This document shows, piece after piece, positions 26,780-63,889 of a stretch of 64,000 nucleotides of DNA (the stretch's first letter is position 1; each line of letters opens with the position of its first letter). The stretch comes from Escherichia phage vB_EcoP_PE007. The notes beneath the pieces were generated by a model. It ran no database searches. It was given only the letters and a program-made list of their open reading frames with translations, and was not told where the DNA came from. The DNA lies in the sequence record OQ938542.1. One strand, written 5' to 3'. The translations under genes and the position numbers were made by a program.

Positions 26780-26853
26780 GCCCACTTAGCTTAGACGGGG
26801 AAAGCAACCGACTAATAATCGGAAGGTCACTGGTTCAAATCCAGTAGTGGGTA
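26780..26853 (+). tRNA. tRNA (hand-folded anticodon AAU; identity uncertain)
   Basis: Acceptor gcccact/agtgggt (7 bp, one GU), D-arm gctt/aagc, anticodon arm accga-ctaataa-tcgga, 5-nt variable loop, T-arm actgg-TTCAAAT-ccagt, discriminator A; 74 nt. Confidence 0.65.
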
Positions 26854-27080
26854 CTTATTAATAGAGAACATAGTCCTGATTGCATTGCACTCTAAAGACA
26901 ATGCCGGTGAGACAGTCCGGCACTCTAATTATTGAAAACATACCTAACGGTGTGAGTATGAGCAGACTATAATGCTCAATTACAGTTAACTATTATCGGA
27001 CTATCAATCCTGTTTGCTGGTACAAGCACCGGTGGTAATAGTTAACTGGCCTAGCCTCGTTAGCTGCGTTAAAGCTACTA

Positions 27081-58832: not shown

Positions 58833-60422
58833 TCACACAATGTATGAACGTAGTGGGTTAACACTATCTTCTTCTTCATCATCCCACATAGGGTCACCCT
58901 TGTTATCCACCATAGTCATACCTGCCTGTGGTTTCCAAGGATTGAGATAACCCAGCATGGAGATAGTATCAATACAGTCATCCTTACCTTTGATTCCATT
59001 AATGGTAGCTAGTTTAATCTGGCCCATGAACAGACCCATAATAGTTGAATCTCTCAACTCTTCCGGGAAGTACATCTTACCAGCTTTGAACCATGGAACT
59101 ACCAGGTTAAATCGTGACAGCTTAGAGGTTACAGGACGTATACCCGGCTTACCACCTTCAGAAGATGCAAAGTTAAAGAAGACATTACGGTTAATCATTT
59201 CTTTCTGAAGGAGCGAAATGAATCCACCTTGCTGCCCTGTGATTTCGACACCAACGTTTTGTGGTTGGTATTCTTGAACCAGACGGAACAGGTCATCAAA
59301 GTTTTTATCCATAAGCTGACGATTAGCCACACCATCAACCCAGAACCAATCTCCATTAGAACTATAAGCCCAAACTGATATGACACTATAGTCACTGGTC
59401 TGTTTCTCCGATGTAGCAAAGTCAGTTGTAATATAATAGTTGTAGCAGGACTTCATCCTTAATAGTTGCTGTCTGCTATACCATCTAATTTCACTATCCT
59501 GAACCAGTCTCTCATCTTCAGAGCTAATACGGAGCATAAGTTCCTGATAGAAGCCTGCCAGCTTACCCGTCTTAACTGCCATGTCATATTGGGCTTTGAT
59601 GTAGTCGTAGGAGAAACGGTCATCCCATGCACCTTGAAATTCTTCCCTACTACAAGGGAACTTCTCACACACAGGCCATACGTTGACATCCCATGCACCA
59701 GACTCTACTGCTTCAATGATAATATCTTCCTTATTAAAGGGAGTACCATTGAAGATTACTTTACGACGTGTAGGGTCAAGAGCATGGTTCACACCTTTAT
59801 AAACGGTGTCTTTAATAGCTTCCATGCTAGTCTTGGAGTTAGCATCACCATCACTAATCAAGTCATCTAGTACACAGAGTGTTGGACGCTTACCATATAT
59901 CTTCGTACCACGAAGACCTGTCTTAGCACCAAACAGCTTAACACCAAGACGATGCCCTTCTACATTACGGAACTCCAGAAGGTTATCCGTAAAGGTAGCT
60001 TCTGGTATCCATTGCTGGAGGAACTCACTATTTTTGTAACGGAACTCAATATTCTTACGTGCAGACTTAGCACCGTTATCCATTGAGTCAGATACGTAAA
60101 TCATTCCTTCTACTTTACCCAGACTAGGTAAGTGACCAAACACTGCCAGGAACAAAGTAAAGTATTCCATGAACACAGCAGTCTTACCTGCACCACGGAA
60201 GCACAGGTTAACTACATACTGGTTCGGGCTAATCATCTTATCCAGCATCTTCAAGTGAACTGGGGGTGTTTTGTTGGATTCACCTTCTTTGCCATTAACC
60301 AACTTAATAAAGTTGGCAAAGGTAAGAGCAAACTGACTGGGAACATAGTTGGAAGAGTTTAGGTGGGAGTAATCCACCTGGTCTAGCCATTCATCCAGTT
60401 CCTGTTTAATTAACTCAGACAT
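58833..60422 (-). CDS. terminase large subunit
   Basis: Walker A-like CFRGAGKT, Asp-rich nuclease region CVLDDLISDGD; ATG 60422 with gagga RBS (track start 60443 is GTG). Confidence 0.75.
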   Translation of the reverse strand: MSELIKQELDEWLDQVDYSHLNSSNYVPSQFALTFANFIKLVNGKEGESNKTPPVHLKMLDKMISPNQYVVNLCFRGAGKTAVFMEYFTLFLAVFGHLPSLGKVEGMIYVSDSMDNGAKSARKNIEFRYKNSEFLQQWIPEATFTDNLLEFRNVEGHRLGVKLFGAKTGLRGTKIYGKRPTLCVLDDLISDGDANSKTSMEAIKDTVYKGVNHALDPTRRKVIFNGTPFNKEDIIIEAVESGAWDVNVWPVCEKFPCSREEFQGAWDDRFSYDYIKAQYDMAVKTGKLAGFYQELMLRISSEDERLVQDSEIRWYSRQQLLRMKSCYNYYITTDFATSEKQTSDYSVISVWAYSSNGDWFWVDGVANRQLMDKNFDDLFRLVQEYQPQNVGVEITGQQGGFISLLQKEMINRNVFFNFASSEGGKPGIRPVTSKLSRFNLVVPWFKAGKMYFPEELRDSTIMGLFMGQIKLATINGIKGKDDCIDTISMLGYLNPWKPQAGMTMVDNKGDPMWDDEEEDSVNPLRSYIV

Positions 60423-61104
60423 CTGTAATGTCCTCATCTGCACGTACTAGTTTAGAACCAGCAACCTCTTTGGTGGGTACACCACTATTGATTGCATTAA
60501 TTTGCTGCTCAGCCAATGCAGCAAGTGTTGCCTTGAGGTCAGTTAATCCGGAGTTCTCTCTCAAGTCCAGATTGATATTCGTTACCTGATCTTTCGGTTT
60601 AGCTAAGTGAGTAAGGATAGAGTTAGCTGCATCACATCTTACCTTCTCACTTGCTGCTGTAGTCATCAGTTCGACCTGAACGTTGATTGCCTTCTGATAG
60701 TTGTCCTGGTTCACAATCCACACTGGAACCAAACTTTGTTCCATGATGAGGTTAACTAACTTACCTCTGTGATATGCAGATACATAAGCACTAATATCTT
60801 TCTCGCTGGTTCCTCGTGCAACAAGTTCTGCTTGTCGGTTAGGGAATGTCTTGAAGTAGGCTTCCTTATTGGAATAACCCATGTGTTTATAAGTCACATA
60901 CTGAACTGCATTCATGTAGTCCTGTGTCTTAAACTTACCTTCCTTCATTACACCAGAGTAGGAGATAAAGTTTTCACGGAAGGACTCAGCAACCAGTTGG
61001 TCTTGGGTTATGTTGTTGATCGTGTCTACCAACTCCTGGGTCACACTGTTTTTGAAGTTAGCAGGTAAGGCATTAACAATCTGCTGCTTAGTTAGTTCAC
61101 TCAT
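60415..61104 (-). CDS. putative terminase small subunit (gp69-like position)
   Basis: First gene of the leftward late operon, directly upstream of the large terminase; by position only. Confidence 0.35.
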   Translation of the reverse strand: MSELTKQQIVNALPANFKNSVTQELVDTINNITQDQLVAESFRENFISYSGVMKEGKFKTQDYMNAVQYVTYKHMGYSNKEAYFKTFPNRQAELVARGTSEKDISAYVSAYHRGKLVNLIMEQSLVPVWIVNQDNYQKAINVQVELMTTAASEKVRCDAANSILTHLAKPKDQVTNINLDLRENSGLTDLKATLAALAEQQINAINSGVPTKEVAGSKLVRADEDITDV

Positions 61105-61166
61105 ACTTATCTCGCTACAAAGTTATGTCTATTAAAGAAGATTCTTTTCTTGGGGTGAGTTACCCC

Positions 61167-61195
61167 TTGAAGAAACGATACCATACAGTTACACT
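61167..61195 (+). promoter_or_regulatory. candidate sigma70-like promoter for the right-end array
   Basis: TTGAAG, 17-bp spacer, TACACT in the divergent intergenic region; weak match. Confidence 0.2.
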
Positions 61196-61275
61196 TTAGT
61201 CATGATATAGAAAAAGTTCATGATACTAAATAGTATGTAATGTTCCGATGACCCTATTCCCAAAAGGAGTAACCT

Positions 61276-61566
61276 TTGAGAATCTATATGAGAGTCCAAG
61301 ACTCTAAAGATGAATACAAAGAGCTAGACCACACCAAGGCTGGTATTCTTTCAGATGATATCATCATTACACATGATGAAGACACCTACCATGAATTAGC
61401 TGGGATGATGTTGTTAGAGAATCGTCCGGGCATTAAGATCTTAGAACCAAGAGAAACTTACTCTTTAGAAAAGAGACTTTCAGCTCTTGTGTTCTTCACA
61501 AAATTACCTCATAGTGTCTCCGTCAGGCGAAGCAAAGACAGTGTTCGGATGACGGTGACGATGTGA
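61276..61566 (+). CDS. paralog-family small protein 1
   Basis: TTG start with aaggag RBS 6 nt upstream; motif IIITHDEDTYHELAGMMLLEN shared with downstream genes. Confidence 0.5.
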   Translation: MRIYMRVQDSKDEYKELDHTKAGILSDDIIITHDEDTYHELAGMMLLENRPGIKILEPRETYSLEKRLSALVFFTKLPHSVSVRRSKDSVRMTVTM

Positions 61567-61714
61567 TTAGTCATGCCGCCTAGTAGACAGTGGCGGTACT
61601 CGTAAAGAGTTAATAACTTCTACAGTCAGGGTTGCCCGGCTCCTTTCCTACCTAGTAGGCTAACGATACACATGTATCTAGGGTGATGAACTGACCCGTG
61701 ATAGAAAACGGTAA

Positions 61715-61750
61715 GGGGTAGAGTCGAGAGGCTCTACCCCATTTCTTTTT
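61715..61750 (+). terminator. rho-independent terminator
   Basis: ggggtagag-tcgagagg-ctctacccc followed by atttcttttt. Confidence 0.65.
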
Positions 61751-61766
61751 CAGGAGGTATGCAAAT

Positions 61767-62156
61767 ATGAGCATCTACTGTTTTGATATTGATATTACCG
61801 GAGTACTACTTAAACAGGAACCTTATTACCTTGGGGAACCAGAAGTAGTAAGTAAGTTCATTACCCCGTGGCAAACAGTATTCTTACCTGACTGCGAAGA
61901 GTCCCATGAGGTTATTGGTTCTCTTTTCCTATCCAACCTGCAACTCAATACTAAGATACTTACTGAACCAAAGGTGTATGATCTTTCCTTTTACAGCGAC
62001 TTTCAAATGATCTTCCCTGGTGTACGTTTCTATAAGATAGATGGTTGGGAATTGATAGCTGACCATAATGTTTTTAATAAAACACTTTCCATTTACTTCA
62101 GACCTATTCCTAAAGGAAGGAAAATCAATCATGAAATTCATAATGACCATCCCTAG
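61767..62156 (+). CDS. paralog-family small protein 2
   Basis: ATG with aggagg RBS; motif VFLPDCEESHEVIGSLFLSN. Confidence 0.5.
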   Translation: MSIYCFDIDITGVLLKQEPYYLGEPEVVSKFITPWQTVFLPDCEESHEVIGSLFLSNLQLNTKILTEPKVYDLSFYSDFQMIFPGVRFYKIDGWELIADHNVFNKTLSIYFRPIPKGRKINHEIHNDHP

Positions 62157-62445
62157 TTTTACTGGAAGGGGGGCTATGTATGCAGGAGACTTCACTTTAG
62201 AAGAAGTCATGGACAGCAACCCCCAGCAAGTAATCCTGGTTCCTACTTTAGAGGACTACCATGAGGTAAGGGGTCAACTCTTCTTAGCAGGTAATGACCG
62301 TAAGGTTGTATGTATTGTTCCTCCATCTGTCTATACCAACTTTAACTCCGGGGAACCTATCCCATACATGATGGTGTCTGATGATTACCAATGGGATTGT
62401 CGCTATGAGGATGGTGAATCCCGTTACTACTATGTAAGGAAGTAA
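62131..62445 (+). CDS. paralog-family small protein 3
   Basis: ATG 62131 with aaggaagg RBS; motif ILVPTLEDYHEVRGQLFLAGN. Confidence 0.5.
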   Translation: MKFIMTIPSFTGRGAMYAGDFTLEEVMDSNPQQVILVPTLEDYHEVRGQLFLAGNDRKVVCIVPPSVYTNFNSGEPIPYMMVSDDYQWDCRYEDGESRYYYVRK

Positions 62446-62448
62446 GGT

Positions 62449-62766
62449 ATGCGCTTCTATGGTTTGAGTTATCGTAGTACCAGTCCCCTTAATCTGGGGG
62501 TAGGTAAATCTCACTGGATTAGAATAAGCACGCCTATGACCATGTACTACGAACAATGCGAAAAAGCAGATGAGTTCATCGGAACCTGCCTCATGTTGGG
62601 TGTACCTATTACCTTTATTAAAATAGATACCTCCATTGAAGTTCCAGAGAATGTAGTTGTGTATATCTATTCCTCCAGTGAACCTATGGTAGTTACTACC
62701 CTTACAGGTAGACTTATTACCCTCTATCCTTCTACCTCATATTTATCTAGCGACGAGAGCTGCTAA
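62449..62766 (+). CDS. small protein (possible divergent family member)
   Basis: ATG with aggaag RBS; weak similarity ADEFIGTCLMLG. Confidence 0.4.
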   Translation: MRFYGLSYRSTSPLNLGVGKSHWIRISTPMTMYYEQCEKADEFIGTCLMLGVPITFIKIDTSIEVPENVVVYIYSSSEPMVVTTLTGRLITLYPSTSYLSSDESC

Positions 62767-63050
62767 TGGTTATCAGTAAAATTTATTCAGAAATACCTTG
62801 GGATGAATACATCCACCATAAAAAAGTAGCTAACCTAGATGCTGATATACTTATCCTGGTTCCAGACGAACAGTCCTTGCATGAACTACAAGGATTGCTT
62901 TTCTTACACAATAAGAAAGCAGAAGTACATCTACTTGAACCAGGTACACCAATGTCCTGGCAGGGTAGATTCAGTCCATGGCATCTCAATACAGACAAGT
63001 ACATCCTATCCTTCGAGGATAACACCCCAATCTATAAGGAAAGACAATGA
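62766..63050 (+). CDS. paralog-family small protein 5
   Basis: ATG overlapping upstream stop; motif ILILVPDEQSLHELQGLLFLHN. Confidence 0.5.
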   Translation: MVISKIYSEIPWDEYIHHKKVANLDADILILVPDEQSLHELQGLLFLHNKKAEVHLLEPGTPMSWQGRFSPWHLNTDKYILSFEDNTPIYKERQ

Positions 63051-63089
63051 AACTAAACATCTCCTTCTATCTGGTACAGGTACTGAAGT

Positions 63090-63428
63090 ATGAACGTTAA
63101 GCTATTGGGTATGAGTGGTACAGACTTGCTGTACTACTCCTCTGAACCAGAGAAAGCAATCATTCACACTATGACCTATGGAACCTCAACACTAATAATG
63201 GAACCGGGAGAGTTAGCAGACTTTGCACAAGGGCATAAACTCCTTACTAACAGTAATGCGGAGATAGTTATCCTGCAAAATGGTGAGTCAGTATTCATAC
63301 CATTGGGGGATTATGCTCATGTGTTTATCAAAGATGCTACCGTAAGGAATAGTAGTGGTAATCCTAACCATCCGGACTATTACTCAGGTATAGCTCGTAT
63401 CATCACCAGAGAACTTTCTCCTATTTAA
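63090..63428 (+). CDS. small hypothetical protein
   Basis: ATG ORF at the end of the array; family membership unclear. Confidence 0.4.
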   Translation: MNVKLLGMSGTDLLYYSSEPEKAIIHTMTYGTSTLIMEPGELADFAQGHKLLTNSNAEIVILQNGESVFIPLGDYAHVFIKDATVRNSSGNPNHPDYYSGIARIITRELSPI

Positions 63429-63608
63429 CTGCTTATAAGGATTAACATGTGGTATGTAACAGTCAAGGGCTTACCTGAACCAGTGATAATGCACAGCCTT
63501 GCTTTCGTAGAAGTAGGTGGACCATTACTTGTAAATGGTAAGCTCTATGAGGTTTTAAGTATCAAACGCTATGATGAATAGGGGATAGATAGTTATCCCC
63601 CATAGTAT

Positions 63609-63734
63609 TTACAGATAAGGTAGAACCAGTGACAAGAGTACAATACCTATGAATCCTACAGCACAGGCACAGGCAATAAAGTGTAACCAGTTCTCAGGGT
63701 CTGTAGGATTGTATTTACCCCAACCATCTTTCAT
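63609..63734 (-). CDS. possible 41-aa membrane protein (not in the ORF track)
   Basis: ATG with gaggt RBS; hydrophobic FIACACAVGFIGIVLLSLVL; stop abuts hairpin 63583-63602. Confidence 0.25.
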   Translation of the reverse strand: MKDGWGKYNPTDPENWLHFIACACAVGFIGIVLLSLVLPYL

Positions 63735-63833
63735 GTTAGTACCTCAAAGTTATCTGCTTATAGAGATAGTGCCTATAATATTTTTGCATGTCAAAATTGT
63801 GATAGCTATGTATGACTGTAGTGGTGTGGCTGG

Positions 63834-63889
63834 GGCTACACCCTTACACTCAACTAGCCCCCCCCCCCCGGTATGTTGACGGTGTAGCC
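63834..63889. repeat. C12 homopolymer flanked by a 9-bp inverted repeat
   Basis: ggctacacc at 63834-63842 and ggtgtagcc at 63881-63889 flank a run of 12 C at 63858-63869. Confidence 0.5.

Follow-up and report, generated by a model that had tools for sequence, protein, structure and literature searches.

At the right end of the genome of Escherichia phage vB_EcoP_PE007, examined here as a 64,000-nucleotide (nt) stretch of sequence record OQ938542.1 (the window), a rightward set of elements composed of the small gene g1, a structured RNA ending in a terminator and the g2-g7 operon occupies the stretch from the terminase operon to the terminal repeat. The RNA (61567-61750, + strand, about 184 nt) is the most conserved stretch of this right end, and its identification as a structured non-coding RNA, apparently undescribed, is robustly supported. 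Five of the small genes (g1, g2, g3, g5 and g6) are, on the evidence of their sequences, paralogs encoding one small single-domain protein, and g4 is probably a diverged member of the same superfamily, here called gp70/gp71 after the two phage N4 genes that belong to it. An earlier note on this DNA had drawn attention to the small genes; the non-coding stretch between g1 and g2, the most conserved and structured element, was absent from it. The right-end 2.9 kb matches 58 phage records at 80-95% nucleotide identity, nearly all of them Escherichia or Shigella Gamaleyavirus, and by its sequence the window is a Gamaleyavirus genome (G7C/N4-like; Schitoviridae, Enquatrovirinae). The BASEL collection includes a phage of this genus, RudolfBernhard_Bas96.

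The 200 nt between g1 (61276-61566) and g2 (61767-62156) contain no open reading frame (ORF). This spacer is 97% identical among Gamaleyaviruses (g1 and g2, 88%; small terminase gene, 94%), and it shares sequence blocks with N4 and KP8. A common plan for the RNA could be read from representatives of seven lineages. In the window it starts with a GC hairpin, P1 (61576-61580 with 61592-61596), whose loop engages in an H-type pseudoknot of four base pairs (GUAG, 61583-61586, with CUAC, 61620-61623; the consensus pairs the P1 loop, A-GNNG, with CNNC-AG). Across the lineages an optional variable hairpin follows P1, ahead of a conserved AAUAAC (61612-61617 in the window), and a long-range helix (GUCAG, 61625-61629, with CUGAC, 61691-61695) with a range of 65 nt then encloses a conserved single-stranded (A)CUCCUU (CUCCUU at 61640-61645) and two hairpins (61647-61659 and 61665-61678). 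A further small hairpin (61697-61710) leads to an intrinsic terminator (61715-61740) with a U-run to 61750; across lineages this run ends 2-15 nt ahead of the ribosome-binding site of the next gene.

Covariance model R1, made from four sequences, already matched N4, KP8, JWAlpha, inbricus and others over its full length, and model R2 gave 40 true matches in 77 Schitoviridae loci, all of them oriented divergently from the small terminase gene; its only reverse-strand matches, just two and weak, fall on the palindromic terminator. The E-values of these home-made models are rough because their calibration was short, and a loose DNA pattern for the RNA, which gave mostly chance matches, was not used. 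In an alignment of 29 sequences, 94.6% of cells are paired, compared with 63.8% in shuffles, and changes on both sides are seen at 34 of the 38 pairs. The covariation score is 0.634, versus 0.165 in shuffles (0 of 500 reach 0.634) and 0.06-0.09 for slid partners; the terminator helix (helix 8) is among those that covary. Helices that are part of the covariance model favour that model by construction; the pseudoknot was outside it, and this unmodelled element pairs in 97.4% of cells, with 28 of the 29 sequences fully complementary and eight different combinations represented (GUAG/CUAC, GUGG/CCAC, GGAG/CUUC, GCGG/CCGC, GCAG/CUGC, GGUA/UACC, GCCG/CGGC and AGCG/UCGC). Many pairs are G-U (the first long-range pair has 12 of 28, one pair of the terminator has 9 and the pseudoknot has 5), which fixes the + strand as the functional one and argues for RNA over DNA. 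Searched with Rfam 15, neither the RNA of the window nor its counterparts in N4, JWAlpha, inbricus and the contig L201 gave a match at E<=1; the scanned stretch of the window yielded one hit at this threshold, to mir-279 (E 0.27; - strand, 61172-61251), outside the RNA. Our literature search found no description of such an RNA.

Wherever the proteins are detectable the order gp70, RNA, gp71 is strict, and the RNA terminator directly precedes the g2 ribosome-binding site. In the Enquatrovirinae the g1 stop is a UGA within the conserved 5' flank of the RNA, UGAUUAGUC, 9-11 nt before P1, so that a terminating ribosome would touch the RNA fold; in the Rothmandenesvirinae some 70 nt separate the gp70 stop from the RNA downstream of it. 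The RNA also occurs in about 20 loci that have no detectable superfamily member, which argues that it is older and more widespread than the detectable protein superfamily. The next recognisable gene in those loci is gp1-like, and the RNA would therefore be the last element there before the genome end or repeat. Seven distant Schitoviridae contigs (L201, L207, L219, L225, L238, L248 and L254) have this arrangement of RNA and then a gene (MxTARMTFGTVLGTV...) resembling N4 gp1, the first gene of the N4 left end.

Several more specific readings of the RNA were tried and rejected. An anti-terminator formed by CUCCUU with AAGGGG in the 5' arm of the terminator looked attractive by eye, with an apparent UU-to-AA swap in N4, but covariation does not support it: in the 29 sequences pairing stands at 79.6% versus 79.3% in shuffles, no better than a +1 slide. 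A kink-turn or C/D-box reading of 'UGAUGA...CUGA' fails on both of its parts, CUGA being a strand of the covarying long-range helix and UGAUGA not being conserved even within the Gamaleyaviruses. A signal for read-through or frameshifting at the g1 stop would extend the protein by just 0-13 codons, and in the Rothmandenesvirinae the stop is about 70 nt away.

The genes themselves lie to the right of the two terminase genes, which occupy the - strand (large subunit, 58833-60443; small subunit, 60415-61104), and everything rightward of these is on the + strand; the earlier note was correct that the array is opposite in orientation to the terminase and late genes and stands at the genome end. It had counted six small + strand genes, and there are in fact seven. 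The first, g1 (96 amino acids [aa]; phrog_7213), is an ortholog of N4 gp70, and its TTG start gives back to the protein an N-terminal 'MRhaY' strand that is conserved across the superfamily. After the RNA come g2 (129 aa; N4 gp71 ortholog, phrog_9160), g3 (62131-62445; 104 aa, phrog_11661; a longer ORF begins at 62068), g4 (62449-62766; 105 aa, phrog_12099), g5 (62766-63050; 94 aa, phrog_16338), g6 (63090-63428; 112 aa, phrog_12606) and g7 (63447-63581; 44 aa, phrog_19797). From g2 to g7 they form a tightly packed operon whose stops and starts overlap or nearly abut (the g3 start overlaps the end of g2 by 26 nt, and that of g5 overlaps the g4 stop as TAATG), and a terminator-like hairpin (63581-63610) closes it. 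The last operon gene, g7, which the note had left out, is the ortholog of N4 gp72 and not a superfamily member; it is about 70% identical to gp72 and better conserved than any of the paralogs.

That the small proteins are paralogs is indicated by several comparisons. The motif that the note had reported in at least four of them is indeed present, each of its four strings in its place (g1, g2, g3 and g5), but four proves an undercount, with g6 also a member and g4 a probable one. As had been noticed, proteins 1 and 5 align over their N-termini (blastp, 35.8 bits, 38% identity across 60 aa); blastp also links g2 with g3 (31.6 bits) and g3 with g5 (26.2 bits). In PHROG cross-matches, g1 hits the g5 family (7e-5), g5 the g1 family (2.5e-4) and g3 the g5 family (2.5e-3), and profile-profile comparison of the respective families gives probabilities of 90% (F1-F5), 83% (F3-F5) and 76% (F2-F3), all in one register. 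A jackhmmer search from g5 against 587 ORFs, of which about 500 were decoys (six-frame ORFs of the 64-kb window), recovered g1, g2, g3, g5 and g6 with zero decoys; it also returned N4 gp70 and gp71, five genes of KP8, two or three of inbricus, two of JWAlpha and Moo19 gp86. The similarity hence exceeds chance by blastp, PHROG cross-hits, profile-profile comparison and iterative search alike, and no housekeeping domain was matched. Against a hidden Markov model (HMM) of the superfamily, g1, g2, g3, g5 and g6 score 57-113 bits. For g6 the values are 61 bits against this HMM and 2.7e-14 after iteration; it represents an 'EPGELAD' subtype, of which a second copy occurs in Mimir124 and IME11 and to which KP8 gp069 also belongs, and these proteins bridge g6 to the superfamily. 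The highly diverged candidate, g4 (core sequence TMYYEQCEKADEFIGTCLMLG), scores just 12 bits against the HMM, its hhalign P value is 8e-4 in the correct register, and its ortholog in Moonfish scored 0.0015 in the jackhmmer search from g5.

MAFFT places all six proteins in register with a single invariant Gly, and the register is kept when members from N4, KP8, inbricus and JWAlpha are added. The core found in all six consists of a beta-strand (hhhh[P]), an acidic loop, a helix (with the invariant Gly and a C-terminal Asn/Gly) and a second beta-strand. The paralogs are 20-38% identical in amino-acid sequence and share no nucleotide repeat. The relation to N4 is closest for the first two (g1 versus gp70, 1e-18; g2 versus gp71, 1e-7), which the PhAPEC5 annotation had already likened to gp70 and gp71 ('similar to gp70'). 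Because g1 and g2 are orthologous to these N4 genes (YP_950548 and YP_950549), the array is a lineage-specific expansion of the gp70/gp71 superfamily, in which g3, g5, g6 and probably g4 are the further paralogs: N4 has two copies and the window phage five or six, and the Gamaleyaviruses have thus gained from three to six additional genes in the interval from gp71 to gp72. The databases hold the superfamily as six separate families of 'unknown function' (PHROGs 7213, 9160, 11661, 12099, 16338 and 12606), none of them characterised, whose members share both the site after the terminase operon and the b3-a1-b4 core (b, strand; a, helix).

Structure prediction adds to this. With an alignment of fewer families (two by one description, those of g5, g3, g1 and g2 by another), AlphaFold2 gave a mean predicted local distance difference test (pLDDT) of 62, and that model was not used for fold searches; with 132 sequences pooled from all subfamilies, the model of g5, a central member of the superfamily, reached a pLDDT of 87.7 and a predicted template modelling (TM) score of 0.80. 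This rise from 62 to 87.7 on pooling supports the homology of the pooled families. The predicted topology is b1-b2-b3-a1-b4-b5-b6-b7, in which the motif of the earlier note would correspond to b3, a loop, helix a1 with the invariant Gly, and b4; the elements E28-32, H35-47 and E52-56 of the model have a pLDDT of about 95-97 (31-60 blocks). Foldseek found no match to this model in the PDB at E <=0.001 (TM <=0.35), and the good matches in BFVD were only uncharacterised proteins of N4-like phages (Gamaleyaviruses, OLB145, KP8, the Achromobacter phages JWAlpha, JWDelta and Axy, and Pseudomonas phage Zuri). The note's author had not recognised the family, and neither do the databases: Pfam, NCBIfam and PDB sequence searches gave nothing significant for the array proteins, and PHROGs gave only families of 'unknown function'.

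Two known folds were considered and set aside. For the HIT fold the best lead, HINT1, was not significant (E 0.23), and the His-x-His-x-His-x-x catalytic motif is missing; for a cupin (EutQ-like, PF05899) in g6, the score was 11.4 bits versus a gathering cut-off of 23.5 (E 0.26), with no defining motif. No homolog or structural analog of known anti-defence inhibitors was found in Pfam, the functional PHROGs, NCBIfam, PDB sequences and folds or the named BFVD entries, a search that used no dedicated anti-defence library. Where g1, g2, g3 and g5 have a His-Glu pair, g4 and g6 have Ala-Asp; the superfamily therefore shares no candidate catalytic residue, and no polar residue is conserved across all subtypes. 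All of g1-g6 encode mildly acidic proteins (isoelectric point 4.6-6.4). We infer that the array proteins act by binding and not as enzymes, and that the paralogs have diverged to suit different partners, or variants of a partner, of the host or of the phage; anti-defence or host takeover, the function suggested in the note, may be one plausible class of partner.

The tblastn hits, 89 phage records with g1-like genes and 68 with g2-like genes, are confined to N4-like phages that infect Escherichia, Shigella, Klebsiella, Achromobacter or Pseudomonas; orthologs of the array genes occur in hundreds of contigs. None was found outside the Schitoviridae in word-indexed searches, tblastn against phage records and BFVD, which are not exhaustive. 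The location is constant, with superfamily genes standing first to the right of the small terminase gene: the nearest gene divergent from it is always gp70-like, and a gp71-like gene follows in the Enquatrovirinae and Rothmandenesvirinae. Among 79 Schitoviridae loci gathered via the small terminase gene, members were found only where that gene product is at least 62% identical to the window's, with 1-6 copies per locus. The content of the array differs between close relatives: some are without g5, some have two copies of the g6 type and some carry unrelated inserts. One insert of about 105 aa, seen in relatives only and absent from the window, has a metalloprotease-like HELNH (HExxH) motif and no Pfam or NCBIfam match (L001 3445-3759, L003 3434-3748, L005 3443-3769, L006 3505-3819 and L007 3452-3778). 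Another, of 125 aa and likewise absent from the window (L007 3775-4152, Shigella phage Moonfish gp74), has a sub-threshold match to DUF3440 (E 0.0014).

Computed against six relatives, the ratio of nonsynonymous to synonymous substitution rates (omega) is 0.10-0.29 for g1-g6 (0.14 for g1, 0.21 for g2, 0.27 for g3, 0.10 for g4 and 0.14 for g6) versus 0.01-0.03 for the terminase genes, at a synonymous divergence (dS) of 0.3-0.6. The small genes thus evolve about 10-fold faster than the neighbouring terminase genes; they are genuine genes under relaxed or partly diversifying constraint, with no net positive selection. The description of a diversifying multi-copy family in the earlier note accordingly holds for the varying copy number and content and for the fast evolution, but the overall selection is purifying rather than positive.

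How the set is expressed can be approached from its layout and from relatives. Between g1 and the small terminase gene, which diverge, lies an intergenic region (61105-61275) that is, by alignment and identity table, 96% identical among Gamaleyaviruses; its blocks common to N4 and KP8 include a GC hairpin (GGGGT-GAGTT-ACCCC, about 61154-61168), flanked by T-rich and A-rich runs, and TTAsACTTTAG. This region presumably holds promoters for one or both directions; its + strand has no strong sigma-70 consensus. In ONT-cappable-seq data for the N4-like Pseudomonas phage LUZ7, mid-infection transcripts of the Watson strand cover the rightmost cluster of small ORFans (PMC9163698), and by this analogy the array proteins would probably be made from the middle phase onward. 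The analogy is one of position only, because the right-end ORFans of LUZ7 are non-homologous.

The reading that we favour, while holding it to be somewhat short of an even chance as a whole, is that gp70/gp71 paralogs serve as diversified binding factors and that the conserved RNA serves as a gate and/or as a small RNA. The RNA would be a + strand product, at least some of it arising as the 3' portion of g1 transcripts. Because its terminator immediately precedes the g2 ribosome-binding site, expression of g2-g7 requires either read-through or a promoter inside the set that was not seen, and the RNA could then act as a gate (attenuator) for g2-g7, as a stand-alone small RNA, or as both. A gate is the simplest reading for the window phage, limited by the missing covariation support for the anti-terminator and by the presence of the RNA in loci with no detectable superfamily member; a stand-alone small RNA is equally possible. 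The exposed ACUCCUU resembles an anti-Shine-Dalgarno sequence, which we regard as a lead and not a result. A fuller proposal would make the RNA a new class of phage regulatory RNA common to much of the Schitoviridae, either a gate (riboswitch-like, or sensing a protein or the ribosome) or a trans-acting small RNA whose ACUCCUU targets ribosome-binding sites, which in the Enquatrovirinae controls a diversifying array of gp70/gp71-type effectors with a previously unseen fold; this we rate as unlikely.

Several observations weigh against the favoured reading. The fixed position of gp70 and gp71 across two subfamilies fits a conserved role better than an arms race, and to judge from these sequences g1 and g2 look more like carriers of a lineage-wide function than like disposable accessory genes. 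Omega is below 1 everywhere, and the timing is taken from another genus with non-homologous right-end ORFans. Because the RNA is present where no superfamily member is detectable, its function cannot depend on the superfamily. The sole concrete switch mechanism that we formulated, CUCCUU with the terminator 5' arm, is without covariation support, and a scan of the + strand for the sigma-70 consensus identified no promoter. The protein functions in this reading are, finally, deduced from sequence and a predicted model.

We grant a small but real chance to an alternative, namely that gp70/gp71-like proteins have a conserved, phage-internal role at the genome end (for example packaging, end protection, or replication or recombination of the terminal repeat), the extra Gamaleyavirus genes being subfunctionalised duplicates that are not directed at the host. 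The invariable place of the gp70-like gene next to the small terminase gene, the gp71-like gene that follows it in the Enquatrovirinae and Rothmandenesvirinae and the abutment of the array on the terminal repeat agree with it, and in the LUZ7 study a replication-related role was put forward for the right-end cluster of that phage on the ground that it is co-transcribed with middle genes (PMC9163698). However, many Schitoviridae with the same terminase and RNA show no detectable member, so that the superfamily is not universal; fast evolution (omega 0.1-0.3 versus 0.01-0.03) and a copy number that varies among near-identical phages would be unusual for core machinery; and the proteins are acidic, with no recognised nucleic-acid-binding fold. 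It seems quite improbable that proteins and RNA form one module, in which gp70/gp71-like protein(s) bind the pseudoknotted RNA to make a ribonucleoprotein or gp70 feeds back on read-through of the leader into g2-g7. The strict gene order and, in the Enquatrovirinae, the g1 stop inside the RNA's 5' flank would be expected on this view, but the RNA is found in about 20 loci without detectable superfamily members, the Rothmandenesvirinae stop is distant, and acidic proteins are unfavourable for RNA binding.

Very improbable, in our view, is that the conserved stretch functions at the DNA level (for instance as an origin, as a signal for packaging or as N4-type promoters made of single-strand hairpins), with the small genes merely lying around it. 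N4-type polymerases do use extruded DNA hairpins as promoters (PMC4496689, PMC9163698), the element is near the terminase genes and the genome end, and its helices include several 5-bp stems closed by loops of 3-4 nt. Its pseudoknot, its 65-nt-range helix and its canonical intrinsic terminator with a U-run speak against this, as do the frequent G-U pairs, which on the other strand would be A-C mismatches, poor in DNA, and the confinement of all RNA matches to one strand relative to the small terminase gene. That the ORFs, short and all annotated 'hypothetical' as they are, are not all real genes and share their motif as a by-product of repeated DNA has a negligible chance, being already refuted by selection and conservation (omega 0.10-0.29 at dS 0.3-0.6, orthologs in hundreds of contigs, 20-38% identity without a nucleotide repeat, and a confident fold from the pooled alignment).

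Known systems offer partial parallels to the favoured reading of binding factors and a gate or small RNA. The right-end cluster of LUZ7, 29 small ORFans (gp87-gp115; L012 28699-34346), likewise runs rightward in tandem from the terminase genes to the genome end, but its proteins, of about 65 aa, have no sequence similarity to the gp70/gp71 superfamily, and the covariance model found no copy of the RNA in the right half of LUZ7. As the two arrays are unrelated, different Schitoviridae evidently fill the right-end slot with different small-gene arrays. The 0.3-0.7 region of T7, the pre-early genes of T5 and the Alt/Mod paralogs of T4 are further small-protein arrays, early or accessory, of virulent phages, often acidic and often host-directed. 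The window array resembles them in having small fast-evolving genes at a genome end and has no homology to them; by the N4 model, moreover, the genome end that bears it enters the cell last, and its genes are probably not early ones.

For the RNA, riboswitch and attenuator leaders and antitermination RNAs such as HK022 put are comparable in placing a conserved pseudoknotted structure and, with it, an intrinsic terminator directly upstream of an operon. Unlike them, the window RNA has no Rfam match and no covariation-supported anti-terminator, and it is also present where no array follows. HK022 put, a processive-antitermination RNA, is also mentioned in PMC4496689. The late-infection small RNAs of LUZ7 (intergenic, orf69-orf70) are similar in being non-coding, shorter than 250 nt, encoded by an N4-like phage and ended by terminators; identity with them was rejected, since they stem from another locus (where the middle region ends, ahead of the gene for the virion RNA polymerase) and the covariance model gave no match there. 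Our literature search found nothing relevant on N4 gp70/gp71, right-end transcription or the N4 origin.

To the right of the array, the equivalent stretch in relatives extends up to a direct terminal repeat. From the annotation of this repeat in Mimir124, the corresponding start in the window would be around 63500, and the last 500 or so bases of the window are probably terminal repeat. Just past the operon terminator, a 41-aa ORF on the - strand (63609-63734) has a hydrophobic, membrane-like C-terminal half. Within 63823-63870, the sequence CTGGGGCT resembles a conserved left-end sequence reported for G7C-like phages (10.1101/542787); after it there is a run of twelve C at about 63859-63870. 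Elsewhere in the window, ARAGORN detected a single tRNA-Ile gene with anticodon AAT (26780-26854, + strand).

N4-like phages have provided a classic model of transcription and are common in phage therapy collections, and the genes at their right end have been without an assigned function. Six PHROG families of 'unknown' proteins can now be merged into a single superfamily for which there is a confident model and no relative of solved structure, a target for screens of anti-defence and host interaction, and a copy number that changes between near-identical phages marks this region as a hotspot of adaptation. The covariation-supported pseudoknotted RNA is apparently undescribed: it is more conserved than any neighbouring gene, occurs in several subfamilies and is absent from Rfam. 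Should a role as regulator or small RNA be borne out, it would rank among the few widely conserved structured RNAs of virulent phages, and one that could be tested in N4.

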